A stretch of DNA of 64,000 bases from a virus (IMGVR_UViG_3300043425_000245); one strand, 5' to 3'; numbered from the stretch's first letter, positions 8,208 to 61,800 are shown. The notes: generated by a model from the letters alone, not told the origin. Made by a program: numbers and translations.

Positions 8208-8977
8208 TGTTAAACAATAGTGTATTTTATCACGGGATAGTTAGAAAATGTATTATCGGCTTCGGTCGTTTGTTTTCTAACATCTACATTGACCGCAGGA
8301 TTAGTGATCCAGTGAATGGTGAACAGGTTCAACGCATTCACGTTCCATTGTCTTACGCTCCGAAAGAAAAATGGTTAGTTCGTTTGGATGAAGACCCAAC
8401 ATTAGAGAACCACACTCTTACATCTCTACCAAGAATGTCTTTTGAAATTATCGCATATACTTACGATTCTTTGCGTAAAGTAAACCGTATGCAATATATG
8501 AAAAATGATGGTGTATCCACTAATGGTGATACTTCTACATCAATGGTAAGAACTCCAGTTCCATACAACATTGATATGTCTTTGTATATTGTAACAAAGA
8601 CTCAAGAAGACGCTCTTCAAATTATTGAGCAGATTCTTCCATGGTTTACTCCAGAATACTCTATGACTATTAATGCTGTAGATGATATGGGCATTAAGCT
8701 AGACGTTCCAGTCGTTCTAAACTCTGTTATTGTATCAGACGAATTTGAAGGTACGTTCCAACAACGTCGTTTTGTTATCCACACAATTAACTTCCAGATG
8801 AAAGTTTCTATGTTTGGTCCAGTTTCTCAACAAGGTGTTATTCTTCAAACTGACGCTAACGTTGGTATGAACACCAACCCAGCAACTCCAATTGATGTAA
8901 CTTACCGAGCAACGGGTGAATTTGGTCCAAATGGTGAACATATAATCACCAATGATGGGTGGATTAACGAACTCTAA
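8207..8977 (+). CDS. Tail sheath stabiliser / tail completion protein gp15
   Basis: GFGRLFSNIYIDRR...IHVPLSYAPKEKWL matches T4 gp15 LMGDLFSNIQIKRQ...IRVPITYASKEHFM. IEQILPWFTPEYS matches VEQILPYFQPHFN. Confidence 0.8.
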   Translation: MLNNSVFYHGIVRKCIIGFGRLFSNIYIDRRISDPVNGEQVQRIHVPLSYAPKEKWLVRLDEDPTLENHTLTSLPRMSFEIIAYTYDSLRKVNRMQYMKNDGVSTNGDTSTSMVRTPVPYNIDMSLYIVTKTQEDALQIIEQILPWFTPEYSMTINAVDDMGIKLDVPVVLNSVIVSDEFEGTFQQRRFVIHTINFQMKVSMFGPVSQQGVILQTDANVGMNTNPATPIDVTYRATGEFGPNGEHIITNDGWINEL

Positions 8978-8983
8978 TAATTT

Positions 8984-10561: not shown

Positions 10562-10637
10562 GTGAAAACTACTAAAAACTAAATAAAATTGTAGACAGTT
10601 TTTGTCTAGGCAATCATTATAAACAAGGAGAACAACA

Positions 10638-13538
10638 ATGCCGTTTCAATTATCTCCAGGCGTTGCAGTCGTAGAAAAAGACTTTACTTCTATCGTTCCT
10701 GCCGTAGCAACCTCCATCGGAGCGTTTGCTGGTCAGTTCGACTGGGGTCCAGTTTTGGAACCAATCACAATTACCTCAGAAGATGAGTTAGTTCGTCGTT
10801 TTGGTACACCAAACAACAATAACTTTGAGTCTTGGTTTACAGCCGCAAACTTCCTATCTTATTCTAATAATCTATTACTAGTTAGACAACAGACAACTAA
10901 CATGAAGAACGCTGTTGTTACTCCATCAGGTTCTTTGACAACTGTCACTATGGAAGAAACTGGTTCTGGATACAACTCTTTAAGCGCAGCTCCTGCTGTT
11001 GGTATCTTCACTGAAGGTTTGATTAAAGAGATTACAATCACTAACCAAGGTACTGGTTACACAAACCCACCAGGTGTTGAAATTTTGGGTGGTGAAGGTA
11101 CTGGCTTCATTGGTCAAGCTAACATTTCTAATGGTAAAGTAATCAGCGTAACAGTTGTTACACCAGGTTACAACTACGTTAATCCAGTTGTTACATTCAC
11201 TGGTGGTAGCGGTACAGGTGCTGCAGCGAATGCTACAACACAAAACGTACAAGAAGATGGTGGCGTACAACCTACTGCGGTTGCTACTCTTTCTGGTGGC
11301 GCTATCACTTCTATCGGTATTACAGCTTCTGGTTCTGGTTACACAACTGCTCCAACTGTTTCTGTTGTCCCAGGCAGCGGTGACACTGGTTCTGGATGTA
11401 CAGCTACTGCAGTTCTTTCTGGTTCTGCTATCCAAAGCGCATCTGTAAGCAACGGTGGTTCTGGCTACTCATCTCCAACAGTATCTTTCACTGGTGGTGG
11501 GGGTTCTGGCGCTCAAGGTGTTGCAGTTCTAGCTGGTGGTTTATCTTCTATCACTATTATCAACGCAGGTTCTGGTTACACAACTGAACCAACTATCACT
11601 ATCACTGGTGGCGGTGGTTCTGGCGCAACTGCAGTTGCAACAACTAACGGTAATATCATTACTGCTATTTCTATTGTTAGCGCAGGTTCTGGATACACTT
11701 CTGAGCCAGCTATCACTATTACTGGTGGTGGCGGTACTGGTGGTGTGGCTGACGCTGTTGTTGGTTACTCACAAATCGCTTCTATTACTATCCAAAACGG
11801 TGGTTCTGGATACACTTCTGCTCCAGTTGTAAACATTGAAGACCCAACAGGTGACGGTGCTTCTGCTACTGCAGTTATTGGTACTAGCTCTATCGCTTCT
11901 ATCAGTATCGTTTCTGGTGGTACTGGTTACAAGAAACTTCCAGTTGTTACTATCACTGGTGGCGGTGGTTCTGGTGCAACAGTTGGTGCGATCACTGTTG
12001 GTCCATCTTCTATCCAAAGCATCACAGTAACTGAAGGTGGTACTGGTCTTTCTGCTGCTCCAGCTGTTATTGTAGCTGATGCACCAGAAGGTGGTACAAC
12101 TGCTCTAGCCTCTGGTACAATTACTACTGCTGGTGTTGCTATCCTTAATGGTCAATTCTACTCTGCTAACTTTATCAATGGCGCTGGCGTTACTGGTGAG
12201 TGGGCTGCTAAGTACCCAGGAAAACTAGGTAACACTCTAAAAGTTTCTATGGCTGACTCTGCATCTTATGCTTCTTGGGCATATAGAGACGAGTTCGACG
12301 CTGCTCCAGGAACATCTGAAGGTGCTGCAGTTATCGGCGGTTCTAACGACGAAATGCACATTATCGTTATCGACGAAAAGGGTTATATCTCTGGCGTTGA
12401 AAACGCTGTTCTAGAAAAGTACGCTTTCGTATCTAAGGCTTCTGATAACAAGAAACCAGACGGTACAAACAACTACTACAAAGACGTTATCAACTCTCGT
12501 TCTGAGTGGTTGTGGTGGACTGATCACACTGACCAAGTTGTTGGTGGTTATGACGCTTCTAACTGGGGTCAACCAATGGCTGGAACTGCGTTCAAGTCAA
12601 TGACTGCGCCTCTAACACAATCTCTATCTGGTGGCTTCGATGATGCCTCTGGTACTGACGGTCAACGTATGACTGCTTATGAGATTTTTGCTAACGCTGA
12701 GTTGTATGATATCAACCTAATCATGGCTGGTAAAGCAAATCCAACTGTTGCAAATTACATCATCGACAACGTTGCATTGGAGCGTTTGGATGCTGTTGTG
12801 TTCGTATCTCCAGAAGACATTCAAACTGAACAAGTTATTATCGGTGATAATTCTTCTTCTGTTGATAAGATCATCGCTTATCGTAACGAGTTGAACTCTA
12901 ACTCTTACACTGTGCTTGATTCTGGCTTCAAATACCAATATGACCGCTACAACGACGTGTATCGTTGGGTTCCATTGAACGGTGACGTTGCTGGTCTATG
13001 TGCACGTACTGACTACACTAACGATCCATGGTGGTCTCCAGGTGGTCTAAACCGTGGTCAAATCAAGAACGTTGTTCGCTTGTCTTGCAACCCTAACCAA
13101 ACTAACCGTGACAACTTGTATCGTAACGCTGTTAACCCAGTTGTTACTTTCCCAGGTCAAGGTACTGTATTGTTCGGTGATAAGACTCTATTGGCTAAAC
13201 CAAGTGCTTTCGATCGTATCAACGTTCGTCGCTTGTTTATCGTTCTTGAGAAGTCTATCTCTACAGCTGCTAAATTCCAGTTGTTTGAGTTCAACGATGC
13301 GTTCACTCGCGGTCAGTTCAAGAACTTGATTGAGCCGTTCCTACGTGACGTACAAGGTCGTCGTGGTATTACTGACTTCCTAGTTAAGTGTGATGAGTCT
13401 AACAACACTGGTGAGGTTATCGATCGTAACGAATTCGTTGCCGATATCTTCGTTAAACCAACTCGTTCTATCAACTTTATTACTCTTAGCTTCGTTGCCG
13501 CTCGTTCAAGCATCGCCTTTAGCGAAATCGGTGGCTAA
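10638..13538 (+). CDS. Tail sheath protein gp18 with a large internal tandem-repeat insertion
   Basis: N-terminus MPFQLSPGVAVVEKDFTSIVPAVATSIGAFAGQFDWGP...LVRRFGTP...FLSYSNNLLLVR matches T4 gp18 MTLLSPGIELKETTVQSTVVNNSTGTAALAGKFQWGP...LVNTFGQP...FLQYGNDLRVVR. 966 aa versus 659 aa in T4. Confidence 0.85.
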   Translation: MPFQLSPGVAVVEKDFTSIVPAVATSIGAFAGQFDWGPVLEPITITSEDELVRRFGTPNNNNFESWFTAANFLSYSNNLLLVRQQTTNMKNAVVTPSGSLTTVTMEETGSGYNSLSAAPAVGIFTEGLIKEITITNQGTGYTNPPGVEILGGEGTGFIGQANISNGKVISVTVVTPGYNYVNPVVTFTGGSGTGAAANATTQNVQEDGGVQPTAVATLSGGAITSIGITASGSGYTTAPTVSVVPGSGDTGSGCTATAVLSGSAIQSASVSNGGSGYSSPTVSFTGGGGSGAQGVAVLAGGLSSITIINAGSGYTTEPTITITGGGGSGATAVATTNGNIITAISIVSAGSGYTSEPAITITGGGGTGGVADAVVGYSQIASITIQNGGSGYTSAPVVNIEDPTGDGASATAVIGTSSIASISIVSGGTGYKKLPVVTITGGGGSGATVGAITVGPSSIQSITVTEGGTGLSAAPAVIVADAPEGGTTALASGTITTAGVAILNGQFYSANFINGAGVTGEWAAKYPGKLGNTLKVSMADSASYASWAYRDEFDAAPGTSEGAAVIGGSNDEMHIIVIDEKGYISGVENAVLEKYAFVSKASDNKKPDGTNNYYKDVINSRSEWLWWTDHTDQVVGGYDASNWGQPMAGTAFKSMTAPLTQSLSGGFDDASGTDGQRMTAYEIFANAELYDINLIMAGKANPTVANYIIDNVALERLDAVVFVSPEDIQTEQVIIGDNSSSVDKIIAYRNELNSNSYTVLDSGFKYQYDRYNDVYRWVPLNGDVAGLCARTDYTNDPWWSPGGLNRGQIKNVVRLSCNPNQTNRDNLYRNAVNPVVTFPGQGTVLFGDKTLLAKPSAFDRINVRRLFIVLEKSISTAAKFQLFEFNDAFTRGQFKNLIEPFLRDVQGRRGITDFLVKCDESNNTGEVIDRNEFVADIFVKPTRSINFITLSFVAARSSIAFSEIGG
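10957..12090 (+). repeat. In-frame tandem repeats (about 10 units of 114-120 nt, 38-40 aa) inside gp18
   Basis: Recurring unit ...I(T/S)SI(T/S)IxxxG(S/T)GY(T/S)xxPx(V/I)TITGGGGSGAxAVAT... Recurring DNA cores ggttctggttacac / actggtggcggtggttctgg at 11333, 11455, 11569, 11686, 11800 and 11917. Confidence 0.8.
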
Positions 13539-46899: not shown

Positions 46900-48273
46900 A
46901 TGAGTATTGATGCTGGAAGAAATGTGAAGGTAGTTGTATTAGAAGCCCCAGAGGTTGTGCCTCGCCCAGATTTAGTTGGTACATGGTTGGATGAAACTCA
47001 TTACCACACACTGGTTGAGTCTGATATGGATTTGTACTTGCCTGCAAAGTGCGCCACAGACTTATCTGATCCAGATTGCAACAAGCAATGTAGTGGTTGC
47101 GCAAAAGGTCTTGATGAACGTAACATCGTTTTCAAGTTCCGTAAGAACTACTTCAGTGATGAAATGACAAAGTCTGCTTACGAAGGTCTTCGTGACGCAG
47201 CTACTGAAACTCAGAACCGTGGTACTGCTGCTGGTCCACGTGGTGAGAAGCTACAAGGTCGCGACTGGGTTACAGCGTATCAATGGGATATTATTGAAGC
47301 CTTTAAGAAGGGTGCTGGTAACTTGTTGGGTGAAGACCCGATTGAAGCTATCCAAACTAAATATGCCGAAGGTCGTGACCAAGCGTCTAACCGTGCTCAA
47401 GTATGGCTCCGCGATTCAGTTGCAGATGCTGGGTTCCAATTTGATGACTGGGTTGAAACAACTCGCCGTAAACCTGCAGCTGAAGCGTCAGCTGATGCAG
47501 CTTGGGTTGAAGACAATCTAATCTCTAAGACTACTTACGCAAACCCAGTGAACTCTGGTATTGCTGGTTGGTACGATCGTTATCCACGTATCCCTTATGG
47601 TCGTGCAACTTCTTACACTGAGAAGCAATTCGATAAGTTCAAGAAGTCTTACCCATACCTTCAGCATCTGTCTAAAGCGTTCGCTGAATTGTTACCATGG
47701 CGTTATGGCAACCAGAAAGCCGCTGCGGATAAGATTGATCCACGCTTCTTGGTCCCAAATACTCCATTCAGTACAATTACTGTAAACCGTAACTTCAGAA
47801 CTGCAGCCCACTATGACCCCGCAAATATGGATGATGGTTTCGCTAATATCTGCGTGTTTAGTAACTCTGATAATTATAGAGGTGCTTACTTGGTATTCCC
47901 CGAGATTGGTTATGCTGTTAACATTCGTCCAGGTGATTTACTGTTCGTTAATAACATGGCTGGTCTGCATGGTAATACTGAATTGATTCTGGATGACCCT
48001 AATGCTGAACGTATCTCTATCATTGCATTCTTCCACGAAGGTATGTTGACTCTTGGTTCTATGGAGTATGAAAATGCTCGTCGTAAGTTCGTTGATCACT
48101 GCAAGAACGATGTTAACAACCCTCACTATCGCCCACGCTTTAACGGTGTATACGCTGGAATGTGGGAAAGCCAAGAGTGGTATGACTTCTGTAAGAAAGA
48201 AGTTGGCGAAGCAGAAACCTTGAAGATGCATCCAGAATCTAATGCTTCTTCACTAGATGAGTTCTTTGCCTAA
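46900..48273 (+). CDS. TET/JBP-family 2OG-Fe(II) dioxygenase (5-methylpyrimidine or thymine oxidase) with N-terminal Cys-cluster region
   Basis: AAHYDPANMDDGFANICVFSN gives H-x-D-x-x-N (TET2 AHRDLHNMQNGSTLVCTL). LHGNTELI matches THGSILIE. ERISIIAFFH matches TET2 NRISLVFYQH (2OG-binding Arg and terminal His). N-terminal CATDLSDPDCNKQCSGC cysteine cluster. Confidence 0.75.
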   Translation: MSIDAGRNVKVVVLEAPEVVPRPDLVGTWLDETHYHTLVESDMDLYLPAKCATDLSDPDCNKQCSGCAKGLDERNIVFKFRKNYFSDEMTKSAYEGLRDAATETQNRGTAAGPRGEKLQGRDWVTAYQWDIIEAFKKGAGNLLGEDPIEAIQTKYAEGRDQASNRAQVWLRDSVADAGFQFDDWVETTRRKPAAEASADAAWVEDNLISKTTYANPVNSGIAGWYDRYPRIPYGRATSYTEKQFDKFKKSYPYLQHLSKAFAELLPWRYGNQKAAADKIDPRFLVPNTPFSTITVNRNFRTAAHYDPANMDDGFANICVFSNSDNYRGAYLVFPEIGYAVNIRPGDLLFVNNMAGLHGNTELILDDPNAERISIIAFFHEGMLTLGSMEYENARRKFVDHCKNDVNNPHYRPRFNGVYAGMWESQEWYDFCKKEVGEAETLKMHPESNASSLDEFFA

Positions 48274-48980
48274 TGTGTGCCGTAATTGGAGCAGTTATTA
48301 AGAATCCTTCTCTGAAGGATTTTGAAGCCCTGAAGCGTGTGTTCGTCGAGTCTAAGATTCGTGGTATGCACGCAACAGGTATGTCATTCTTACCAAAGTG
48401 GACTGATGATATTGTTACAATTAAGGAAGCTATCCCAGCGGATCAGTTCGTTGAGAAGCATATGCATAACGACAACTTCAAAGAGTTCATTAACAAGGAT
48501 GGTAACTTATATCTGATCGGTCACTGTCGTTACTCGACATCTGATTTGGAATATAACCAACCTATGGCCAATGCAGACAAATCAATTGTCCACAATGGTG
48601 TTATCACTCAAGAGCTTCCAGAACACTGGAAAGAGTTGTATGGTTATGACTGCGCAACAAAGAATGATTCTGAGTTAGTCCTGCATTCAAACGATCCTCT
48701 TGATGAGTTCAACAATATGTCCATGGCAGTTTGTACTCTCACGGCTTCTCCTAAAGAGTTGACTGTTTATCGCAATGGTAAGCGTCCATTATATTTGACT
48801 ACTCTATCGAATGGTAGTATAATTACCTCTACAGCAGATATTGCCAAACGTGCTAATTTGTATTTTCCAAACATGGAAATTCCAATGGACACATATATCA
48901 CGTTTGACTCAGCCTTAACTATGAGGATGCAACTTGTTAAAACAGGAAACAAGGATTTACAGAATGTACAACAAAAGTGA
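48273..48980 (+). CDS. Class-II glutamine amidotransferase / Ntn-hydrolase-like protein (N-terminal Cys nucleophile)
   Basis: Starts MCAVIGAV (Cys2 nucleophile as in MCGIVG GATase-II). Immediately followed by an amidoligase gene, the conserved PF12224 neighbourhood. Confidence 0.6.
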   Translation: MCAVIGAVIKNPSLKDFEALKRVFVESKIRGMHATGMSFLPKWTDDIVTIKEAIPADQFVEKHMHNDNFKEFINKDGNLYLIGHCRYSTSDLEYNQPMANADKSIVHNGVITQELPEHWKELYGYDCATKNDSELVLHSNDPLDEFNNMSMAVCTLTASPKELTVYRNGKRPLYLTTLSNGSIITSTADIAKRANLYFPNMEIPMDTYITFDSALTMRMQLVKTGNKDLQNVQQK

Positions 48981-49836
48981 TTTTACATATGGTATGGAGA
49001 TAGAGTGGGGAGATGTTCCCCGCTCTTTTTCAATTCCGGAACAACTAGGTTCTTGGGAATACTCCGAGCGTGACATTATCAACCTTCGTGCACCATACGC
49101 AAACGTGTGCGCCGATCCGTTGGGTGTTGAACCGCCAATGGGTGGTGAGATTAACACCAAGCCAACTAGAACTTGGCAAGACCAAGTTGATCGTTATTTT
49201 GAACTGAAAGATTTATTCAATGAACAAGGTCACGACCCAACTGTTGGTGTTACTGCTCATACCCATATTCATTGCCGTGTCCCAGGTCTTCGTGATGATA
49301 TTGATGCACTGAAGCGTCTAACAAAATACATCAAAGAGAATCAAGCTGCAGCCATTGAACATGTATATGGCTTCTTTGAGCACAACCAGATGAAGGGTGC
49401 CAAAGGTTCTAAGATGTATCTGAAGTTTGATGGTGGTCGCCCAATGCCTGACTACATGAGCGATAACATTATCAACCTAGCAACTGACTTTGATTCTTTT
49501 ATCAAGATGCACGCCGCAGGTAAAGATGGTGTATCAATGGGTCGTCCATTCCGTTTCGCTATTAACATGTATGCGTTGAAGCATATTGACACTGTAGAGT
49601 TTCGATTGTTCCGTGGCACGTTAGATCGTACTGAACTAGAATCATGCTTCCGTTTTGTTGAAGACTTCCTTGATGCTGCATTGAATGATGGTCCAAGCGT
49701 AAACGATCTTATTTCTGAACGTGGTTATAAGTTCCCTCCGATGCAATGGGACTTGGCTCAGTTTATCGGTTGGGAAAAGACTAAGCACCCAGAAGAACGT
49801 GGCAAGAAAGTGAGAACATACGTTGAAGTTGAATAA
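48964..49836 (+). CDS. Amidoligase-family enzyme (glutamine-synthetase/GCS2-like)
   Basis: Conserved gene-pair context with the GATase-II-like protein. E/H-rich catalytic region ...TAHTHIHCRVPG...VEFRLFRGT. AAGGA RBS before ATG 48964. Alternative starts 48934 and 48994. Confidence 0.5.
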   Translation: MYNKSDFTYGMEIEWGDVPRSFSIPEQLGSWEYSERDIINLRAPYANVCADPLGVEPPMGGEINTKPTRTWQDQVDRYFELKDLFNEQGHDPTVGVTAHTHIHCRVPGLRDDIDALKRLTKYIKENQAAAIEHVYGFFEHNQMKGAKGSKMYLKFDGGRPMPDYMSDNIINLATDFDSFIKMHAAGKDGVSMGRPFRFAINMYALKHIDTVEFRLFRGTLDRTELESCFRFVEDFLDAALNDGPSVNDLISERGYKFPPMQWDLAQFIGWEKTKHPEERGKKVRTYVEVE

Positions 49837-50374
49837 GTGTACTCGTGACCAATTCATCAAAGCTATCTCTGATGATAAGGCTGACAAGTTTGCTAAGACT
49901 TTCGTGGCCAAAGCAGACATGCAGGAACAGTGGGATGATTGTATCGGTGCCTTCAACGAAGAAGGTGAACTGATGGCTGCTATCATTACCACTATCTCTA
50001 AGCGTAAACCTTTCGTTGCTAATCTACAGCTGCTTCACACCTTTGCTAAACACAGGGGTCAGGGAGCAGCTAAAGCGTTATGTGAAGCATCACTTCGTCA
50101 TGTTAAGAGTAAGCAAGCGTTGTACTTTCGTGTATCGTCAGAACCAGAATCAGTTGGCTTCTATGAGAAGATTGGTTTCAAGTTCTGGGGTAAACAAAAG
50201 TCTGGTTGTCAGTTGAGTATTTTCCGAATTGATGGCGATACCTTCTTCGAGGGAGACTACGACTATACAGACCAGATGATCAACGGAGCCATCCATAAAA
50301 AGGGAAAAGGTGGGTGTGTAGAGGTATTTGACCTCACCGAAGCCCAGAAACCCCTGACTCTAGAAGGGTTTTGA
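49823..50374 (+). CDS. GNAT-fold acetyltransferase
   Basis: HTFAKHRGQGAAKALCEASL (R-x-x-G-x-A motif A). ...FYEKIGF typical GNAT C-terminus. TTG start in the ORF track; the true start may be downstream. Confidence 0.5.
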   Translation: MKLNKCTRDQFIKAISDDKADKFAKTFVAKADMQEQWDDCIGAFNEEGELMAAIITTISKRKPFVANLQLLHTFAKHRGQGAAKALCEASLRHVKSKQALYFRVSSEPESVGFYEKIGFKFWGKQKSGCQLSIFRIDGDTFFEGDYDYTDQMINGAIHKKGKGGCVEVFDLTEAQKPLTLEGF

Positions 50375-50379
50375 GGGTA

Positions 50380-50408
50380 TTTACTTTTATTCAAGAATAT
50401 AGTATAAT
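50380..50408 (+). promoter_or_regulatory. Early sigma70-like promoter (TTTACT-N17-TATAAT)
   Basis: Same family. Precedes ATG 50436. Confidence 0.55.
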
Positions 50409-50435
50409 ATATCTATAACTTGAAAAGGATTTATT

Positions 50436-51722
50436 ATGATTCATACCACTAACTTCTATCTCTACGCTTGGTTGAAACCAGAACCATATACAGTAAATAT
50501 GGGTAAGAAGGTTTCTCAGAAAACCTCTTATGTTTCATCAGCGTCATCTCAAGAGTTTTGGAATGATTTTGGTAATGCGAAACTACAACAATATTGTATT
50601 TTTGAATCTGATGATGAAGCCGTGGTCAGTGCGGCTGAATGGTGGGGTTTAGATTATGGTATGAAAGTTTTGGGTAAAGGTAAGTTCTACAACAAATCTA
50701 ACAACGCTCACCGTGGCGATCAATCATTAGTAACAGAAGAAATCAAACAGAAGATCGTTGACTTCTATGATGGTAAACTGAAGCCAGACGTTAATGTTGA
50801 TACATTCTCTCTTGGTCGAAACATTATCGACAAAGTTGAGAACGGTTTTTACCCAATCGTACAATTTCCAGTATATAAGTTGGTTGAGATGCAACGCAAC
50901 CAAGCACGTGCAATTGAACAGAACGTTGTTACTGAAGACCAGATTGTTCGAGCATATAATGATGACCCGAAACAAGTATTGCGCGATATTACACCAGCGA
51001 CGTTAGTAAAGCGACCAGATGGTAGTCTTGAAATTGTTAACGGACATACCCGCATCGGCGCTGCTTCTAAGTGTCGTGGGTGGAACGAGATTCCTGTTTG
51101 TATTGTAGAAGAGTCTGAATTTGGTGATACAGAGAAAGATATTGCTACTAATATCTTGCTTGCTGGTAGTTATGCCAACCGTCGAAGCCCTGTCATCACT
51201 AAAGAAAATACTGATGAAGACCTTATGTTCCAGATGGAAAACTATTTGGTCATTCAGGAGATGGACGCATCCGTTGAAACTGCTCAACCGTATATCCGCG
51301 AGGTTCTTACTGCGGAATTTACAAAGAGCGCAGGTTCTAAGCGAGCAGCATCAGGTATCGTCACTAAGATTTTTAATAAGTACGAGAAACAGAAGAACGA
51401 AATGTCAATTGCTAAGAACATGATTGTTTATAGCGACGCTGAACTTCGTACATACTGTTATCAGAAATATGAGAAACACGGCATCGCCGCTGTTCACTCA
51501 ACTATGAGTAGCATGGCTCACTTTGACCCACTTGGTTTTATTTTCCACCACGCGAGTCACATGAATACTCTTCCAAAGAAACTCGCTATTGTTCTTCACT
51601 CCAGGACAAAAGATGAATATGTAAAAGGACAAGCAGCTGGTAAAGTTGCAGCGATGCAAAAGGTCATTGATGGTTATAAATTACCTATCACGATTGATGT
51701 CCTGCCAGCATTTGAAGAATAA
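50436..51722 (+). CDS. ParB/Sulfiredoxin-fold (ParB-like nuclease domain) protein
   Basis: DGSLEIVNGHTRIGAASKCRGWNEIPVCIV resembles the ParB-Srx core (DG.HR..A, IP). About 428 aa. Confidence 0.45.
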   Translation: MIHTTNFYLYAWLKPEPYTVNMGKKVSQKTSYVSSASSQEFWNDFGNAKLQQYCIFESDDEAVVSAAEWWGLDYGMKVLGKGKFYNKSNNAHRGDQSLVTEEIKQKIVDFYDGKLKPDVNVDTFSLGRNIIDKVENGFYPIVQFPVYKLVEMQRNQARAIEQNVVTEDQIVRAYNDDPKQVLRDITPATLVKRPDGSLEIVNGHTRIGAASKCRGWNEIPVCIVEESEFGDTEKDIATNILLAGSYANRRSPVITKENTDEDLMFQMENYLVIQEMDASVETAQPYIREVLTAEFTKSAGSKRAASGIVTKIFNKYEKQKNEMSIAKNMIVYSDAELRTYCYQKYEKHGIAAVHSTMSSMAHFDPLGFIFHHASHMNTLPKKLAIVLHSRTKDEYVKGQAAGKVAAMQKVIDGYKLPITIDVLPAFEE

Positions 51723-52741
51723 TGGATTACAGACTAAAAGAAAACAGAAGAGAAGCCTTCATCCGCTGGTACGCATGGTCAATGAAATATGATGACTGTG
51801 ACCCAGCGGTTTGGGCTACAAACTATCTTCATAAACGTTATGAACATAATGACGAAGAACGTATTTGGTTTGCATGGTTATATGGTAACACATATCAACT
51901 GCCAACTGCTTGGGTTCTTAAGAATGAATTCCCTGACTACGAACTTGCCACGGTAGATCGTATCACTCAATGGAATACAACCAACTACAAACGACTCCGT
52001 TACCAGACTGATACGAAATGGAACAAGGGTCATCTTCCAGCAATGTTTGAATCGTATCAAAATTTTATTGGAAAGAAGACTCAACGTGAAACACTCGAAT
52101 CGTACTACGTCGGTGATGCTAAAGAAAACTTTGATGCTCTGTGGAGCGTTCTTAAGTCAAGGCTTCATAAGTTTGGTCGTTATTCTACTTGGTTCTATAT
52201 GCAGCATCTTAAGCACACTGCTGGTATTAACATTGAGCCTAGTTCTCTTATGTTGGATGATTATGATGGTTCCCGTTCTCATCGTAATGGATTACTTTTT
52301 GCCGCTGGGCGTGATAACGATGTTGATCGAAAACTCACTGGAAGCGAGTATGGAGACCTTGAAGCATTTGGCGAGGGAATCAGGGTTGAAATGCTAGACA
52401 GGTTTCCTGAACTAGCAAATCAAATTGACTTCTTTACTATGGAAACCTGTCTGTGTTCTTTCAAGAAAATCTTTAGAGCAAAGCACGGTCGCTATCTTGG
52501 ATATTACCTTGACCGTCAAGCTGAAGAGATTATCAAAGCTGAAGGTGATGGATGGTATGGTATTGATTGGAATGTTATGTGGCAATCTCGAAATGAAACA
52601 ATCGACTTGCGACTAGACCACAAGAATGGCATCAATAAAGAAAAGTTTACTTTCTTCCTGAACTCAGGTAAAATAGATAACTTAGAATGGATGTTTGAAG
52701 ATGAAGAAAAACCCTTAATGGGATTGGAGATGTTTACATGA
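51722..52741 (+). CDS. Hypothetical protein in the modification cassette
   Basis: ATGG overlap with the upstream gene. Trp/Tyr-rich. No motif I can assign from sequence alone. Confidence 0.4.
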   Translation: MDYRLKENRREAFIRWYAWSMKYDDCDPAVWATNYLHKRYEHNDEERIWFAWLYGNTYQLPTAWVLKNEFPDYELATVDRITQWNTTNYKRLRYQTDTKWNKGHLPAMFESYQNFIGKKTQRETLESYYVGDAKENFDALWSVLKSRLHKFGRYSTWFYMQHLKHTAGINIEPSSLMLDDYDGSRSHRNGLLFAAGRDNDVDRKLTGSEYGDLEAFGEGIRVEMLDRFPELANQIDFFTMETCLCSFKKIFRAKHGRYLGYYLDRQAEEIIKAEGDGWYGIDWNVMWQSRNETIDLRLDHKNGINKEKFTFFLNSGKIDNLEWMFEDEEKPLMGLEMFT

Positions 52742-53175
52742 ACCCAGATGACGTATTAAATGATGTGATGCAAGGAAGTCTTACATTAAGCGACGGCAAT
52801 TATTCTGTTGTAACAAATAGCGGTCTTGCACCAATTGGTATTAGTAGTTGGTCGGCTCATAATGCTATGACTGCTGCTACACCTCTCCCAAAGATTACAC
52901 GCACAGTGGATGAGATTATGGATGAGCATAGCCTCAACCGTATCGCTGTTGATCATAAAGTAACTGCTCAAGAGCTATTGAAGCTACAAGAGGTTGCCCA
53001 TGATTATGCCTCTGAGATTAAAGAGAACATCGCCAAGAACTTAGCACGTGATATTGCCAAGAAGGTTATGTTCAAAAAGAAACACGATAAGGATGCTGAC
53101 GTTCATCACTTCATCGGTCGTGTTTGGGTATTCACTGATGAAGAATTGAAAGAGTTACTGAATAATGTTCATTGA
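52738..53175 (+). CDS. Hypothetical protein
   Basis: Coupled ORF. Confidence 0.35.
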   Translation: MNPDDVLNDVMQGSLTLSDGNYSVVTNSGLAPIGISSWSAHNAMTAATPLPKITRTVDEIMDEHSLNRIAVDHKVTAQELLKLQEVAHDYASEIKENIAKNLARDIAKKVMFKKKHDKDADVHHFIGRVWVFTDEELKELLNNVH

Positions 53176-53770
53176 TAAAATTAAAGCGAATGATGAAGTC
53201 ACCATTCAACTTATTAGAGCGGAGAAAAAAGTGAGAAAACTTATTGCTGTTGGTGGTAGCCCAGGAACTGGCAAGACCACGTTGTTCCGTAAGTATATGG
53301 AAAGTAAAGTATTCCAACCAGTTGAACCAGCCAAGCTAGTTTCAGCCATGTATAATACTGAGCGTGATCTATACATCCTTGGTAAGTATGAAGAAGGCGA
53401 AGTGTTCGCTGGAACCGACCGTCTTTCTATGGCAGTTCAGCCAGCCATGCAGGAGTGGATCGCTTCCCATAACTGTAACGTTCTATTTGAAGGTGACCGT
53501 ATCTTCAATCAGTCTTTCCTAGAGTTCGCCATGGGTCTCCCAGATACCGAGCTTCATATCGTATTCCTGAACGCACCTAAGACAGTTCTCGAACAGCGAT
53601 ATAAAGATCGTGGTTCTGATCAGTCCGAGCAATTCCTAAGAGGTCGCGAAACTAAATATAGTAACCTGTTATCAAATTTTGACTTGATGCCTTATATTAC
53701 TGAGTTTGCAAATACTAACTTAGAGGAACAAGCGAAAGTCTTAGCCTTCCTAGAAGGACAATTAGGGTAA
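53165..53770 (+). CDS. P-loop kinase / NTPase
   Basis: Walker A LIAVGGSPGTGKTTLF, Walker B-like LFEGDR. About 200 aa. Not convincingly T4 gp1-like. Confidence 0.5.
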   Translation: MFIDKIKANDEVTIQLIRAEKKVRKLIAVGGSPGTGKTTLFRKYMESKVFQPVEPAKLVSAMYNTERDLYILGKYEEGEVFAGTDRLSMAVQPAMQEWIASHNCNVLFEGDRIFNQSFLEFAMGLPDTELHIVFLNAPKTVLEQRYKDRGSDQSEQFLRGRETKYSNLLSNFDLMPYITEFANTNLEEQAKVLAFLEGQLG

Positions 53771-53794
53771 GGTTTAGGCTTTCTAGGAGGTCAA

Positions 53795-54502
53795 ATGAAT
53801 TTCCTAGAACAATCTAACTTTGACTGGATGGAAATGCTCAACTTCACTGAGCGTCCATTCCGAGCTAAACTCAACCCATCAAAAATATGGAGAGACCTAG
53901 ACGAGTATGAAAATAACTCCGTCGGTCTCTCCAACTACTTTAAGAAGTGGAGAACTAAAGTAGAGTTCAGACAACCTCTGAAGAAATCGTGGTCAAAATA
54001 CGTTGCTGTCGGTGGCGAGTATTCTCCAGATGACCGTCAATGTTGTATCCAGATATATTCTTTTGACTTCGATAAACATAAATTTGAAGTCAAGACTTGG
54101 AACAAATTCAAGTATCGTGTCATACAAACCTTAATGCATGAGATGATCCACTTCATGCAGTACGATCGTCGCAATGACGAGTACAGTAATTATGTCCTGC
54201 CGCACAAGAAGGTTGGACACTCTCTAAAAGACGCTGAACGTTCATACCTATCTGAGTTTGATGAGATACAAGCATACGCTCATTGTGTCTATCTAGACTT
54301 TAAAATGAACAGACCAAACGTTTCATTAGAAACTTTATTGGCCAGAGTCAATAACAAACGAGACTCTTCAACGCTACATTATATCCTTAAGACCTTTGAT
54401 TACGATTTTAAAAACAATTATGCCATACCAAAACTAATGCAGCATATTGTTAAGTGGGATAGGAAATATAAACTAAATAGTCAGTATGTCAATAAGGGAT
54501 AG
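53795..54502 (+). CDS. HExxH zinc-metallopeptidase-like protein
   Basis: LMHEMIHFMQYD HExxH motif. No further family assignment. Confidence 0.4.
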   Translation: MNFLEQSNFDWMEMLNFTERPFRAKLNPSKIWRDLDEYENNSVGLSNYFKKWRTKVEFRQPLKKSWSKYVAVGGEYSPDDRQCCIQIYSFDFDKHKFEVKTWNKFKYRVIQTLMHEMIHFMQYDRRNDEYSNYVLPHKKVGHSLKDAERSYLSEFDEIQAYAHCVYLDFKMNRPNVSLETLLARVNNKRDSSTLHYILKTFDYDFKNNYAIPKLMQHIVKWDRKYKLNSQYVNKG

Positions 54503-57103: not shown

Positions 57104-58882
57104 ATGATCAATTTTCTAAATTTCTTATTAGAAGCTGAAGAGGAAGGTGCTAAACTAAAGCACATTCACCACGCTGAAGACCGTCCACTTCTACACGGAG
57201 AAGATGGCTTTGAACACGCTTATGGTGCTCTTCAAGCAGCGCACCATCACACTGTACAAGGGCTTCAGTCTCATAAGATGACAATGAAGTATGATGGTTC
57301 TCCATCAGTTGTGTTTGGTCACCACCCCGAGAACGGTAAGTTCTTTGTGGCATCTAAGTCAGCGTTCAATAAGAACCCAAAGATTAACTACACTCCAGAA
57401 GATGTAGATGCTAACCACGGACATGCTCCTGGTCTAGCCGATAAGCTAAAGTCTGCTCTTAAGCACTTCCCTAAAGTTTCTCCAAAGTCTGGTGTATATC
57501 AAGGCGACTTGATGTTTACTCACGATGACTTAAAGAAGAAAGGTGATAAGGTTTCGTTCACACCTAACACTATCACTTATACAGCCAAGGGTGATAAGGC
57601 TGAAGCTATTAAGAAGTCTAAGATTGGTGTAGTTGTTCATACCAAATACGAAGGTGATAAACTAAGCAGCATGTCTGCTCACCATAACGTTTCCGGAAGT
57701 GATTTCGGTCAACACCCAGACGTATTCCATCACACTGCTGATTATGATGCTTCTGGGGCTCACTATTCTAAGCAGTCTCAAGATTCGTTTAACAAACATA
57801 TGTCCGCTGCTCGTGCTATTCACGCTGAGCATAAGGGTAAGATGTACAAAGCTACATCTATGCACCATGGAGACGGTGGACATCTAGCCACATACATCAA
57901 CCAAACTGTGCGCGAAGGTACTACACCAGACGCTGAAGGTTTGAAGACTCATATCGCTGGTAAGTATGAGAAGATGGTTTCTAAGCTAAAGACTGAAAAA
58001 GCTCAGAACGCTAAACTGGATGAACTAAAAGGTCACTTGGATCATATCAAGAAGAACCAAGGTCACTACGATAACCTATTGAAGATGCACGGTCACCTTC
58101 AGTCTGCCAAGAACGAACTTGTTAAGTCTCTAGAATCTAACGAAGGTTCTTACGAACACGCTATCAATGGCGAGGCTTCTAAACCTGAAGGCTTCGTTTA
58201 TAACCATACACATAATGGTGTTACAGAACCTACTAAGCTGGTCAACCGTGCAGAGTTTGCCCGTCAAAACTTATTGAAGGCTCGTACTCCTTCAAAAGAA
58301 GCTGTTGAGAAGCATGGCGTTCTAGCCTTTGGTCGTATGAACCCGCCAACTGTTGGTCATGAACAAGTTATCAACAAAGTCAAAGAAGTAGCCAAAGCTC
58401 ACAACGGTGATCATAAGGTTGTTCTATCACATAGCCATGATGAAAAGAAAAACCCTTTACCTGCTGATGTTAAAGTAACACACGCTCGTAATGCTTTCCC
58501 AGGAACAAACATTGAAGCTGCTTCTAAAGAGAAGCCAACTATTCTTCACCATGCTGCTGACATGTACGCTAAAGGTACTCGTCACTTACACGTTGTTGCT
58601 GGTTCTGATCGTACAGAAGAATACGAAAAGTTACTGAATAAGTATAACGACGGTTCTGAACATAAACACGGCGCATACAAGTTCAAGTCAATCACAGTTC
58701 ACTCGTCTGGTGAACGTGACCCAGACGCTGAGGGTACTGCTGGAGTATCAGGTACTAAGATGCGCGAATTAGCAGCTGCTGGAAAACAAAAAGAGTTCCA
58801 CGCTGGTTTACCAACACACATGAAAGACTTACACAAGTCTGCTCTTTATAATGATTTAAGAAAACATATGGGGGCAAAATGA
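57104..58882 (+). CDS. Candidate internal protein B: KxDG (RNA/DNA-ligase-like) N-domain fused to HxGH nucleotidyltransferase domain
   Basis: N-terminus MINFLNFLLE (CTS-like). Motif-I-like MKYDGSPSVVFG. C-terminal region AFGRMNPPTVGHEQ (NadM/NMNAT-like GRFxPxHxGH variant). Confidence 0.5.
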   Translation: MINFLNFLLEAEEEGAKLKHIHHAEDRPLLHGEDGFEHAYGALQAAHHHTVQGLQSHKMTMKYDGSPSVVFGHHPENGKFFVASKSAFNKNPKINYTPEDVDANHGHAPGLADKLKSALKHFPKVSPKSGVYQGDLMFTHDDLKKKGDKVSFTPNTITYTAKGDKAEAIKKSKIGVVVHTKYEGDKLSSMSAHHNVSGSDFGQHPDVFHHTADYDASGAHYSKQSQDSFNKHMSAARAIHAEHKGKMYKATSMHHGDGGHLATYINQTVREGTTPDAEGLKTHIAGKYEKMVSKLKTEKAQNAKLDELKGHLDHIKKNQGHYDNLLKMHGHLQSAKNELVKSLESNEGSYEHAINGEASKPEGFVYNHTHNGVTEPTKLVNRAEFARQNLLKARTPSKEAVEKHGVLAFGRMNPPTVGHEQVINKVKEVAKAHNGDHKVVLSHSHDEKKNPLPADVKVTHARNAFPGTNIEAASKEKPTILHHAADMYAKGTRHLHVVAGSDRTEEYEKLLNKYNDGSEHKHGAYKFKSITVHSSGERDPDAEGTAGVSGTKMRELAAAGKQKEFHAGLPTHMKDLHKSALYNDLRKHMGAK

Positions 58883-59319: not shown

Positions 59320-61800
59320 ATGAAGAACTATAAAGAACTCCTAAGCGAGCTACCATCCAAGTCCGTGGTTTTCACATGCGGAAGATTCAATCCCCCTAAC
59401 GTGGGTCATGAGCTTGAGATCAAGGTAGTCCGTAAATTAGCGAGTCAGCGCAAAGCTGATCACTTCATTTTTGTATCTTCGGTACAAGACGCTAAAAAGA
59501 ATCCATTAGAAATTAGTAAAAAGATGCAGTATTTGGGAAGTCTATTCCCAAATACAAAATTCGTACATAAAGAGATAGATACTATCGGCTCTGTCCTTAA
59601 AAAGTACAAGAGTGTTACTTTAGTGACCCCAACTGATAACGTTGAATACTATAAGAAAGCGTTGAAGAAAGTTGGTATCACTGATGTTGAGATTGTTAAG
59701 GCTGGAGATACTTGCCCTGATGAAGACGACAAGCTATTGAAGTTGGCATCAAAGGGTGAATTTGTATCGTTTAAAAACAGTCTACCAACAACAGTCAGAG
59801 AATTAGACGGTAAGCGTCTAATGAATGATATTCGTATTGGCTTGAACCTTGAGCCAATCAGAGAACAAATTAACTTGGTTAAGGACGACCTGCGTGAACA
59901 GTATTTCCGTGGTGAGATTTTTAACGAAGGTGATATCGTTGAAAGCGATAATACAGTATATAAAATTATCAAACGTGGCTCTAATCATTTGCTGTTACAG
60001 AATGAAGCTGGTTTAAAAGTGAGTAAATGGATTCAAGACGTACAACTAACCGAAAGAGAATTTATGTTAGACGAAAAACTATTACAAGAAGCTGACGCTG
60101 CTGCAGCCACTGGTTTGGCCACTGGTAACAAAGAAGCTAAGAAAGCACAAGCTGATACAGAGAAGATGAAACTTGCTCTTGATCAAGCCAAGGAAAAAGA
60201 AGACCTAGCCAAGCAACAAGAACGCGAGCGCCAGAATCTTAAGAACATCCCAGAAGAATGCGGTTGCAAAGATTCTCCAGTTGTTGATAAGTCTAAGAAG
60301 TATAACATCGCTAAGTCTATCATGAGTCTAAGTGACTTCCGTAAGTCTACTGGTCAAATGACTAAAGATGAGACTGAGATTGCTGATAAAGTAAAAGATG
60401 GTCTAGTTGGTAACTCTCACTTACATACTGACCACAGTATGCGTCACCGTAAAGTAAAGTATCACTTGGGTGAAGGTAACGGCTACGATGATAACCGTAC
60501 TGGATTTGCTAAGAAGCCTCGCGAAGACGATGAGTACCACAACGAACCAAAACCAAAGTTCAAAGCTAAGTCTCTGTTAGATCGTCCACACACTGTTCAC
60601 ATTGACGGCAAGCCATGGAAGAAGTTCGACAACGGTCACCAAGCCCAAGCTGCCGCTAAGACGCTACGTGCTAAAGGTAAGAAAGCTAATGCTATCGCTC
60701 ACTTCAGAGAAGAAGTTGTGAATGAAGTTAACAAACATTCAACTCTTGGTAGGATTCTTCGTGGTCATGAGTTGAAGAAAAAGGTAGATTCTTCTTTTGA
60801 AAAGATCGGTGACGCCCAAAAGAAAGGTGTTGATGGTAGCAAAGCATTTAGAGACCATGAGCGATACGCTAACCTAGAACGTCCAGGCACTTGGACAAAG
60901 GTTAAAGAAGAAACTGATGAGCAACAAGCTACTCGTACTGCTCAACTAAAGCGTTTCAAAGATCAAGCTAAAGAATCTAAGCTAACTGAAGCACAAGTTG
61001 ATGAAGCAGTAAAGACAAAGGTTAAAACTGTGAACGTTGATAAAGTTCACACAGCTGGTCAAGAACCTCACGAAGAAAAGTTTGAGACAGTTAAAGAAGA
61101 AGCTGTAACTGAGGGGTATTTTGTTCATAGAGAAAAAGATACAAAGTTACACTTTAATACAGTAGCTCAGTTAAGACAATCTAAAACACCTTCTCATTTA
61201 AAAGTTACAGATCATAAACACAACCATTTAGGTACTGTTGCTGACGTTTTGAGAAATCAAACTTTATATAAAACCGAAGAAACTGAATTTGATGACATCG
61301 ATGATAATGAATTAGCTTCTCTAGTTGAAGCTGATATGGATGCTTTAACTGAAGATGATTTCTTCGAAGCATATGATGATGAAGAACTAGCAATCATCGA
61401 CGATGAGACTGGCGAAGAAATCGAAGCCGTTGATTCAGTCACTGAAGAAGCTCTGATGGAAGTTCTATCTAGAGTTGAACGTATCCGTGCTAAAGCTCGC
61501 ATGCGTCGCAGTCAAACTAAGCGTGAGCGTAGAGAGAAGGTTGCTCTACGTCAACTATCAACACCGCAAGTAGCAAACAAGCGTGCTCGTCGTATGGCTG
61601 TTTCTGCTCTTAAGAAGCGTCTTCTAAGAGGACAAAATGCTTCTAAGATCTCCGTTGGTGAGAAAGAACGTGTTGAGCGTTTCATCCAACAACGTCGTAA
61701 AGTTGTAGACCGTCTAGCTGCACGTATGGTTTCTCGTGTTAAACAAGTAGAAAAAGCTCGTATGTCTCACAAGAAATATACTAAACCAGCAGGTATCTAA
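59320..61800 (+). CDS. Candidate internal protein D: HxGH nucleotidyltransferase domain plus long charged coiled-coil and basic tail
   Basis: N-terminus MKNYKELLSE (CTS-like). TCGRFNPPNVGHE nucleotidyltransferase motif paralogous to internal protein B. E/K-rich low-complexity centre. Arg-rich C-terminus. Confidence 0.5.
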   Translation: MKNYKELLSELPSKSVVFTCGRFNPPNVGHELEIKVVRKLASQRKADHFIFVSSVQDAKKNPLEISKKMQYLGSLFPNTKFVHKEIDTIGSVLKKYKSVTLVTPTDNVEYYKKALKKVGITDVEIVKAGDTCPDEDDKLLKLASKGEFVSFKNSLPTTVRELDGKRLMNDIRIGLNLEPIREQINLVKDDLREQYFRGEIFNEGDIVESDNTVYKIIKRGSNHLLLQNEAGLKVSKWIQDVQLTEREFMLDEKLLQEADAAAATGLATGNKEAKKAQADTEKMKLALDQAKEKEDLAKQQERERQNLKNIPEECGCKDSPVVDKSKKYNIAKSIMSLSDFRKSTGQMTKDETEIADKVKDGLVGNSHLHTDHSMRHRKVKYHLGEGNGYDDNRTGFAKKPREDDEYHNEPKPKFKAKSLLDRPHTVHIDGKPWKKFDNGHQAQAAAKTLRAKGKKANAIAHFREEVVNEVNKHSTLGRILRGHELKKKVDSSFEKIGDAQKKGVDGSKAFRDHERYANLERPGTWTKVKEETDEQQATRTAQLKRFKDQAKESKLTEAQVDEAVKTKVKTVNVDKVHTAGQEPHEEKFETVKEEAVTEGYFVHREKDTKLHFNTVAQLRQSKTPSHLKVTDHKHNHLGTVADVLRNQTLYKTEETEFDDIDDNELASLVEADMDALTEDDFFEAYDDEELAIIDDETGEEIEAVDSVTEEALMEVLSRVERIRAKARMRRSQTKRERREKVALRQLSTPQVANKRARRMAVSALKKRLLRGQNASKISVGEKERVERFIQQRRKVVDRLAARMVSRVKQVEKARMSHKKYTKPAGI

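Follow-up and report, generated by a model that had tools for sequence, protein, structure and literature searches.

A 64,000-nt stretch of viral DNA (IMGVR_UViG_3300043425_000245; hereafter the window) carries, at 48273-50374 on the + strand, three overlapping genes encoding a class-II glutamine amidotransferase (GATase), an amidoligase and a GNAT acetyltransferase, which most likely sit mid-way in a longer thymidine-hypermodification operon. That this trio tailors a thymine adduct in DNA is very probable in our judgement, and the whole model that we favour, in which the three proteins would be the tailoring enzymes of a post-replicative thymidine hypermodification, is about evenly balanced. 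A sequence-only reading of the window had proposed a multi-step decoration of an oxidised pyrimidine, on thymidine or cytidine, with acetylation as a late step. That scheme, whose chemistry we infer, fits all of the evidence below, and the thymidine option is the better supported. The trio and the TET gene upstream of it had been described as they stand, but the genes that define the pathway, located just downstream, had been overlooked.

The operon and its phage

Every gene of the window lies on the + strand, and the run at 46900-54502 comprises nine of them: a TET/JBP dioxygenase, the GATase, the amidoligase, the GNAT, a ParB-like protein, an amino-acid:DNA transferase (ADDT), a 145-aa open reading frame (ORF), a P-loop kinase and then a SprT-like protein, whose membership of the system is uncertain. 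The first gene (46900-48273; Pfam Tet_JBP, E 3.2e-23; phrog_24024, E 8e-144) encodes an Fe(II)/2-oxoglutarate (2OG) 5-methylpyrimidine dioxygenase, predicted to turn thymine into 5-hydroxymethyluracil (5-hmU) in DNA; its HxD motif (AAHYD) and distal His are readable in the translation. The ADDT (51722-52741; aGPT-Pplase clade 2; Pfam ADDT, E 1.9e-21) is followed by the kinase (53165-53770; Ploopntkinase3; Pfam PF18751, E 2.5e-9), a predicted kinase of 5-hydroxymethyldeoxyuridine (5-hmdU) in DNA, which adjoins the ADDT in all related loci. A kinase and an ADDT are the defining pair of the thymidine-hypermodification pathways of phages M6, ViI and PaMx11 (PMC8989533). The gene content of a kinase/ADDT-type pathway, namely a 5-hmU source, a P-loop kinase and an ADDT with a catalytic Cys, is thus present in full.

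The trio is tightly packed: the TET stop and the GATase ATG share TAATG, the GATase stop and the amidoligase start overlap by 17 nt, and the amidoligase stop and the GNAT start overlap by 14 nt. Pairwise dN/dS was 0.05-0.15 for each of the three genes, and the order TET-GATase-amidoligase-GNAT was found in ~70 non-redundant IMG/VR loci, at protein identities down to 44-64%. This strong purifying selection and the recurrence of the gene order indicate that the three are real genes, and not chance ORFs. The ORF of the amidoligase extends to a TTG at 48934, and since its homologues are mostly 290-294 aa, the ATG at 48964 (290 aa) was taken as the start, as the sequence-only reading had assumed. 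That reading had also assigned all three families correctly, with no protein falling into an unrelated one: Pfam and Foldseek identify the GATase, the fold identifies the amidoligase (PF12224 being sub-threshold), and Pfam identifies the GNAT.

The GATase (48273-48980), a stand-alone enzyme of the class-II, or N-terminal nucleophile (Ntn), type and the predicted nitrogen donor, is a 235-aa glutaminase domain with the N-terminus MCAVIGAV. It passed the cut-offs of Pfam GATase_6 (41.7 bits, cut-off 27; E 1.5e-10) and GATase_7 (27.9 bits, cut-off 25), and the MC start is invariant in 19 close and 10 distant homologues. The invariant residues are C2, R30-G31, R86, N95-Q96-P97, H107-N108-G109, D132 and E134. 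The motif region aligns with the glutaminase domain of E. coli GlmS (1xff), and we take R86, N108, G109 and D132 to be the equivalents of GlmS Arg73, Asn98, Gly99 and Asp123, with glutamine-binding and oxyanion roles. Sequence and profile searches of the PDB gave nothing significant, the best match being GlmS 1xff at E 0.15, which is good for motif alignment only, and the AsnB and PurF glutaminase-domain matches in NCBIfam were all sub-threshold. The AlphaFold2 (AF2) model (pLDDT 87) predicts the Ntn four-layer fold, and its top Foldseek matches were GlmS, PurF and EgtC (probability 1.00, E 1e-9 to 1e-7).

The likeness to the PurF and GlmS glutaminase domains thus covers the Ntn fold, the Cys1 nucleophile and the glutamine-binding residues and, for PurF, would extend to the proposed displacement of a phosphate ester leaving group by ammonia. 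In contrast to both enzymes, no fused acceptor (synthase) domain was found in the 235 aa. Because the protein is a glutaminase domain alone, its partner must be a separate protein; the acceptor would be the ADDT acting on DNA, and an ammonia channel between the two is conjectural. In some loci that lack an amidoligase, a small second 2OG-Fe(II) oxygenase (PF13759, E 4e-21; L164 5323-5928) abuts the GATase upstream.

The amidoligase (48964-49836) is a carboxylate-amine ligase of the Amidoligase_2 superfamily with the glutamine synthetase (GS) fold, and is predicted to catalyse an ATP-dependent acylation step. The window protein does not pass Pfam PF12224 (15.5 bits, cut-off 22), and for 17 of 20 close homologues the match is likewise weak; the cut-off is exceeded by more distant members of the family (P0327, 33.7 bits; P0319, 25.0; P0260, 24.9). 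The amidoligase profile had no match among PDB sequences even at E 10, so that a fold comparison was needed, and NCBIfam gave none. By comparison of its model, the protein has the catalytic-domain fold shared by GS, gamma-glutamylcysteine ligase (GCL) and PafA, and it also matches many phage proteins annotated as amidoligases. Unlike GS, GCL, YbdK (GCS2) and PafA, it is far smaller (290 aa), with ~10-14% identity to them. Seven acidic, His and Arg residues (E12, E14, E62, H101, H103, E212 and R214) are invariant over three distant clades in a sequence alignment, and are candidate metal- and ATP-binding residues.

The amidoligase family is essentially viral, with 350 clusters in 1.84 billion representatives, and an alignment-based scan of 185,579 species genomes found two close matches, both on contigs of metagenome-assembled genomes. 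Single-protein scans of IMG/VR with the amidoligases of phage Simon and a Vibrio phage returned no relatives; an alignment-based scan did find them. The amidoligase is also far better conserved than its neighbours. Against the sibling locus L023 it is 86% identical, compared with 51% for TET, 62% for the GATase, 62% for the GNAT and 76% for the ADDT, an excess over the flanking genes that suggests an unusually tight constraint.

The third gene of the trio (49823-50374) encodes a GNAT N-acetyltransferase of 183 aa with a TTG start. It passes several models, including Acetyltransf_10 (47.8 bits, cut-off 23.6; E 1.8e-12) and Acetyltransf_1 (E 5.8e-8), and its acetyl-CoA motif A (R/Q-x-x-G-x-G/A) is readable as HRGQGAAK.

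The ParB-like protein (50436-51722), located 2.2 kb downstream of TET, has a ParB N-terminal/CTPase-fold domain and is a candidate activator of the dioxygenase. A profile built from 22 homologues matches the N-domains of Noc/ParB chains in the PDB (7ng0, E 2.8e-5), half of these homologues (11/22) match Pfam ParB_N, and the PHROG ParB-like family is matched at E 6e-4; NCBIfam returned nothing for the ParB-like, ADDT and TET proteins. ParB-associated phage TET/JBP enzymes (5mYOX) have been shown to be thymine dioxygenases, and a consistent association of the ParB-dependent dioxygenases with GATases, P-loop kinases and ADDTs is described (O'Toole et al. 2026, PMC13229309). The window resembles the clusters of their clade C1 in that TET/JBP, a ParB homologue, a GATase, a P-loop kinase and an ADDT occur together, a likeness in gene content. 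Only the dioxygenase/ParB step is characterised in those clusters, and in the window lineage the content of the ParB slot varies, with no gene there in some loci. Among the scanned ORFs of the window (best 25 of 55 Pfam families; 64 kb of genome), there was no strong match to a C5-methyltransferase or to the thymidylate-synthase family. From the ADDT/kinase context, the ParB association and this lack of a strong C5-methyltransferase match, we infer that thymine, and not 5-methylcytosine, is the target.

Among sibling loci, the ParB-like slot is filled, replaced or empty. The flanking genes of L003 are 96-100% identical to those of the window (Trx aside), yet its ParB-like protein (L003 9503-10858) is barely alignable (E 6.6e-8). 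In L044, the cluster genes are just 34-83% identical, but the ParB-like protein (L044 9480-10766) is 93% identical to that of the window, and L011 is among the siblings with no gene in the slot. A 61-nt AT-rich spacer with a TATAAT-like box (50375-50435) precedes the ParB-like gene of the window. The slot is hypervariable, in a pattern that looks like cassette exchange.

The host genome of the operon is that of an uncultured T4-like phage. T4-like myovirus genes in the window include gp23, gp20, gp19, gp15, RegA, UvsY, UvsW and the clamp loader (by Pfam, among the best 25 of 55 families), and PolB, a UvsX-like protein and a DnaB-like helicase, read from their translations, are directly upstream of the cluster. 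IMG/VR contig 3300017978_000154 matches the window almost exactly, and the lengths of related contigs go up to 160-175 kb. A megablast search with the complete cluster returned no match among 50,697 phage records, indicating that they include no close cultured relative. The TET protein has homologues with 41-43% identity in the T4-like phages Cr30, DLP_6 and C48C1. Cr30 and DLP_6 were considered as cultured models and rejected: they have the TET homologue (42-43%), but their annotated neighbours include no GATase, amidoligase or ADDT.

Constant core and optional cassette

A comparison of the TET neighbourhood, which the sequence-only reading had named as a check on its proposal, covered 150 non-redundant viral loci. 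The baits were the amidoligase of the window, an amidoligase profile that also took in the 30%-identical protein of phage Simon, and a profile of the GATase; the loci were annotated by phmmer against the window and Simon proteins, and key unlabelled proteins by Pfam. The constant core of these clusters is a GATase, an ADDT, a kinase and a GNAT, and the amidoligase-GNAT pair is one optional cassette, either present or absent.

The window-type order, TET-GATase-amidoligase-GNAT-(ParB-like)-ADDT-kinase, occurs in 53 complete loci and many partial ones. Fifteen ADDT-bearing loci, 14 of them in the exact order, have TET-GATase-GNAT'-ADDT-kinase, where GNAT' is a distinct 212-aa GNAT and the amidoligase is missing. 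A third type has TET-GATase-(glycosyltransferase)-Simon-type amidoligase-low-molecular-weight (LMW) phosphatase-ADDT-kinase. The order is GATase-ADDT-amidoligase-GNAT-5-hmdU kinase-thymidylate synthase (TS) homologue in L151 and L153, GATase-ADDT-Simon-type amidoligase-kinase-TS in L124, and HMUD2 kinase-GATase-ADDT::GNAT fusion-TS in L152 (2051-5060), the fusion protein matching Pfam ADDT (4.7e-20) and Acetyltransf_1 (4.5e-8). Phage Simon and 12 contigs carry ADDT-FAD oxidase (DAO)-Simon-type amidoligase-LMW phosphatase-5-hmdU kinase-TS, with no GATase, and L123 has ATP-grasp (R2K)-GATase-amidoligase-second amidoligase-ADDT-kinase.

Two of these loci stand out by their content. L152 shows the proposed core in its most compact form. 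In L123 (5694-8939 of a 201-kb viral contig), the R2K ATP-grasp protein, the GATase and both a window-type and a Simon-type amidoligase stand ahead of the ADDT and the kinase, and the three ATP-dependent amide ligases may build a short peptide-like chain on thymine.

The GATase and the amidoligase are separable in both directions. At least 15 loci have a GATase with no amidoligase of any kind, and at least 12 have an amidoligase with no GATase, carrying the FAD glycine-lyase (DAO) instead. In L151, L153 and L124 the GATase abuts the ADDT and the amidoligase lies beyond it, with the amidoligase and GNAT kept together in L151 and L153. This separability, and the contact with the ADDT where the gene order differs, suggest that the GATase belongs with the ADDT rather than with the amidoligase. 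The two had originally been taken for a conserved two-gene unit; such a unit exists in LUZ24-like phages, and the genes are adjacent here as well, but the loci that have one without the other do not support an obligate Amidoligase_2 and GAT-II pair in this family.

The GATase and DAO never occur together: across 127 ADDT-bearing loci, 106 have the GATase, 12 have DAO and none has both. Since the product of DAO is 5-aminomethyl-deoxyuridine (5-aminomethyl-dU; PMC8989533, PMC11472151), this exclusion suggests that the GATase provides an alternative route to the same amine. The ADDTs were aligned with gp46 of PaMx11, at 14-17% identity and anchored by a conserved FG motif. The window ADDT keeps D24, E243, T244 and the catalytic C247 of gp46, the last three within a conserved E-T-x-x-C motif, and all four residues are invariant in the alignment. 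The residue roles in gp46 are published, and its crystal structure has glycine held by W146 and K150 (PMC11472151). Both residues are retained in the DAO-linked ADDTs, and are Y/F in all of the GATase-linked ADDTs, a switch that supports a changed nucleophile.

The cassette itself is coherent. A GNAT is present in 74 of the 76 non-redundant ADDT-bearing loci with a window-type amidoligase (the other two have a second amidoligase instead), and it directly follows the amidoligase in all listed orders. GNAT, amidoligase and 5-hmdU kinase are fused in P0262, whose cluster member P0405 comes from a second source, and in P0250, so that the fusion is known from two independent sources, with contigs of 78 kb and 82 kb. 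Further fusions join amidoligases to LMW phosphatase and to TET-associated glycosyltransferase (TAGT) domains, and one partial amidoligase protein carries, by reading of its sequence, the C-terminus of an ADDT. The cluster neighbours and these fusions tie the amidoligase family to 5-hmU chemistry, whatever the source of the 5-hmU.

The Simon-type amidoligase is nearly always followed by an LMW phosphotyrosine-phosphatase/ArsC-fold protein, sometimes as a fusion (L103 3716-5124; P0319, P0340), and the two form a second fixed module, parallel to amidoligase-GNAT. Clusters of the third type carry an additional GT-B glycosyltransferase gene, located between those of the GATase and the amidoligase, and their kinase gene is followed by a GT-A-like one (L103 2644-3726 and 6675-7472); P0358 and P0340 are amidoligase-TAGT fusions; some lineages may combine amide and sugar decoration. 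Besides that of Simon, the only other cultured-phage homologue of the amidoligase is found in Vibrio phage 2.275.O (L002; MG592671), where it lies (7866-13074) beside a QueF-like reductase, QueC, an Ntn 'nucleophile aminohydrolase' and GTP cyclohydrolase I. As these neighbours are 7-deazaguanine genes, modules of an amidoligase and an Ntn amidotransferase may also tailor deazaguanine modifications of DNA.

Proposed pathway and competing explanations

In the proposed pathway, the dioxygenase, probably with the help of the ParB-like protein, would oxidise DNA thymine to 5-hmU, the P-loop kinase would phosphorylate the hydroxymethyl group, and the ADDT would form a covalent Cys-C6 intermediate with expulsion of the phosphate. 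These three steps are modelled on published homologues; the following three are proposed from the comparative genomics. The glutaminase would hydrolyse glutamine (Gln), and ammonia would serve as the nucleophile to yield 5-aminomethyl-dU, for a net reaction of 5-phosphomethyl-dU + Gln -> 5-aminomethyl-dU + Glu + Pi. This PurF-like chemistry would replace the glycine and FAD-lyase route of PaMx11. The amidoligase would use ATP to convert a free carboxylic acid into its acyl phosphate, and would couple this to the aminomethyl amine; by family precedent the acid would most likely be an amino acid, possibly linked through the gamma-carboxyl of glutamate. The GNAT would acetylate the remaining amino group. 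Both the acid and the relative order of the amidoligase and GNAT steps are provisional. The gamma-glutamyl version of the nucleoside would have a mass of ~386 u, or ~428 u when acetylated.

The individual parts of this pathway differ in strength. We give the GATase an even chance of feeding the ADDT, and a chance somewhat short of even to the acylation of 5-aminomethyl-dU by the amidoligase. More tentatively still, the DNA of this lineage may contain a hitherto undescribed base, namely 5-aminomethyluracil to which an amino acid or another acid is joined by an amide bond, with N-acetylation thereafter. The minimal clusters, namely the amidoligase-less TET loci and L152, keep the kinase, the ADDT and a GNAT, with the glutaminase in place of the FAD enzyme. 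A stand-alone glutaminase needs an activated electrophile, which in these clusters would be the phosphorylated base held by the ADDT, with its exocyclic-methylene intermediate, so that the ADDT is the only candidate partner there.

The closest worked-out system is that of PaMx11, which makes 5-acetylaminomethyl-dU with gp46 (ADDT), gp47 (FAD lyase), gp48 (GNAT) and gp49 (5-hmdU kinase): the ADDT adds glycine, the FAD enzyme cleaves the adduct to 5-aminomethyl-dU, and the GNAT acetylates the product in DNA (Lee et al. 2021, PMC8989533; structures, PMC11472151). The window shares with it the logic of kinase, ADDT and GNAT, the four ADDT residues given above, the predicted 5-aminomethyl-dU intermediate and N-acylation as the end step. 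It differs in that the 5-hmU comes from a TET/JBP dioxygenase and not from a dUMP hydroxymethylase, that a class-II glutaminase is present and the FAD lyase is not, that there is an additional ATP-dependent amidoligase, and that the ADDT lacks the glycine-holding W146 and K150. The window GNAT was considered as an orthologue of gp48 and rejected, as the similarity is of a generic GNAT kind (31% over 62 aa).

Several points weigh against the model. The window GATase gene overlaps the amidoligase gene and not the ADDT gene, LUZ24-like phages pair GATases with amidoligases with no ADDT at all, and one protein, P0327, fuses GATase_6 to Amidoligase_2, on a single 2.7-kb contig. The residue switch is read from an ADDT-gp46 alignment of the low identity noted above, and a Tyr at position 146 also fits an amine other than ammonia, because the PhiW-14 transferase has a Tyr there, with a suggested putrescine-binding role (PMC11472151). 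The thymine target is deduced, and the absence of a C5-methyltransferase covers this 64-kb window only. The locus counts are no unbiased census, since the loci were collected with an amidoligase or GATase bait, and no biochemistry has been published on any GATase or amidoligase of such clusters.

The first three of these points speak for the main rival, amidation of a carboxylate by the GATase and the amidoligase together, which we nevertheless consider unlikely. In this two-component amidotransferase, the ADDT would add an amino acid (Gly or Glu), the amidoligase would phosphorylate its carboxylate, ammonia from the GATase would turn this into a carboxamide, and the GNAT would acetylate the amine. 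The 17-nt overlap and the use of ammonia as an acceptor by GS-fold enzymes are in keeping with such a reaction, as is the adjacency of gp18 (amidoligase) and gp19 (GATase) in LUZ24-like phages, which also carry gp16 (COOH-NH2 ligase), gp21 (RimK) and gp22 (gamma-glutamyl cyclotransferase). There, as here, a class-II GATase adjoins a GS-fold amidoligase in the early or replication region of a phage. The LUZ24-like cluster, however, has no dioxygenase, ADDT or kinase nearby, and its GATase is a 510-aa protein with an extra C-terminal part and ~25% identity to the window GATase. The rival is difficult to reconcile with the separability of the two genes in the window family, with L151, L153 and L124, where the neighbour of the GATase is the ADDT and not the amidoligase, and with the loss of the glycine-holding residues from GATase-linked ADDTs; P0327 is a single sequence.

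A different sequence of events, in which a free small molecule is made first, is quite unlikely. The amidoligase, GNAT and GATase would build an unusual amine, such as an acetylated or gamma-glutamylated diamine, which the ADDT would then install, as PhiW-14 does with putrescine. PuuA, a GS-fold ligase, and SpeG, a GNAT, act on free polyamines, and the GATase-linked ADDTs have a Tyr where the PhiW-14 transferase has its putrescine-linked Tyr. The PaMx11 GNAT and lyase, however, work on the DNA polymer, the amidoligases are fused to DNA-acting enzymes (5-hmdU DNA kinases and the ADDT fragment), and a free-amine route leaves the GATase with no role in the minimal clusters.

A transient gamma-glutamyl cycle like that of EgtA and EgtC in ergothioneine synthesis, in which the amidoligase would add a gamma-glutamyl group to the base amine and the Ntn enzyme would later remove it, no ammonia being made, is very unlikely. 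The closest structural matches of the GATase include EgtC (TM ~0.63), the residues that bind glutamine or gamma-glutamyl are intact, and GS-fold ligases typically activate the gamma-carboxyl of glutamate. The occurrence of either enzyme without the other argues against such a cycle, and masking followed by unmasking has no obvious purpose in a four-enzyme minimal cluster.

We regard a cytosine target as highly improbable. TET would then oxidise 5-methylcytosine made by a methyltransferase encoded elsewhere in the ~160-175 kb genome, with the adduct on 5-hydroxymethylcytosine; 64 kb of this genome were inspected, and some phage TET enzymes are, according to Burke 2021 as cited, 5-methylcytosine dioxygenases. 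The ParB-associated 5mYOX enzymes of phages are thymine dioxygenases (PMC13229309), and the scanned ORFs, among the best 25 of 55 families, gave no strong C5-methyltransferase or TS-family match. In L151 and L153, moreover, the GATase-ADDT-amidoligase-GNAT module occurs with a 5-hmdU DNA kinase and a TS homologue. It is scarcely credible that the trio is unrelated to DNA and makes a peptide tag or metabolite, as was reportedly proposed for phage Amidoligase_2/GAT-II systems by Iyer et al. in 2009 and as the LUZ24-like set of amidoligase, GATase, RimK and gamma-glutamyl cyclotransferase without an ADDT or kinase would allow, because in every related locus the trio genes lie inside the operon, between dioxygenase and ADDT, and family members are fused to 5-hmdU DNA kinase and TAGT domains.

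For the favoured model of a tailored thymidine, the gene combination has already been published and its chemistry has not been worked out. Contigs with 5-hmdU kinase, ADDT and TET_JBP genes together were described by Lee et al. 2021 (PMC8989533), who called the functions of the GATase and amidoligase not yet known, and the characterised tailoring enzymes in a paper of August 2026 are radical-SAM isomerases, pyridoxal phosphate (PLP) decarboxylases, FAD lyases and acetyltransferases. The locus is a published, uncharacterised variant of the kinase/ADDT pathways; the dissection into core and cassette, the exclusivity of GATase and lyase, the residue switch in the ADDT and the evidence from fusions are new here. 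They convert a loose gene association into concrete predictions, with the GATase as the nitrogen donor for the ADDT and amidoligase-GNAT as a plug-in cassette that extends the amine. If the model is true, it would bring two classes of enzyme, and peptide-like adducts with amide linkage, into DNA chemistry; a base of the undescribed kind suggested above would imply the first glutamine amidotransferase to supply a DNA-base transferase with nitrogen and the first ATP-dependent amide ligase to work on a base within DNA. Thymidine hypermodifications shield the DNA of phages against restriction and CRISPR nucleases and provide enzymes for the labelling of DNA, and this system belongs to an abundant environmental T4-like lineage, with metagenomic homologues in the hundreds.

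Neighbouring genes

The conserved 145-aa ORF between the ADDT and the kinase (52738-53175) had no Pfam, PHROG or NCBIfam match. It overlaps both genes and is syntenic in many related loci (31-99% identity), and is absent from others. The gene that follows the kinase (53795-54502) encodes a conserved 235-aa HExxH protein, weakly SprT-like (Pfam SprT-like, E 0.022, sub-cut-off), in which the match lies only around HEMIH; it is syntenic after the kinase in most window-type loci. Because the ADDT works via a covalent Cys-DNA intermediate, it is appealing to conjecture that this protein is a SprT/Wss1-like protease for the removal of trapped enzyme-DNA crosslinks.

Farther downstream, two large proteins (57104-58882 and 59320-61800) have weak cytidylyltransferase-like matches. 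The first of them also has a strong DUF6267 match (E 1.5e-95), and in siblings, too, homologues of DUF6267 are encoded a few kb past the cluster on its downstream side. In the structural and early region of the window (1-37295), a batch Pfam search found several unexpected families: an NAD-dependent epimerase, a cytidylyltransferase-like protein, a ferritin and HSP20, together with a NodU/CmcH-type carbamoyltransferase (N and C domains) and the N-terminal domain of a dATP/dGTP diphosphohydrolase (PF18909). Of these, the carbamoyltransferase and the dNTP diphosphohydrolase may be relevant to the modification of nucleotides or DNA.

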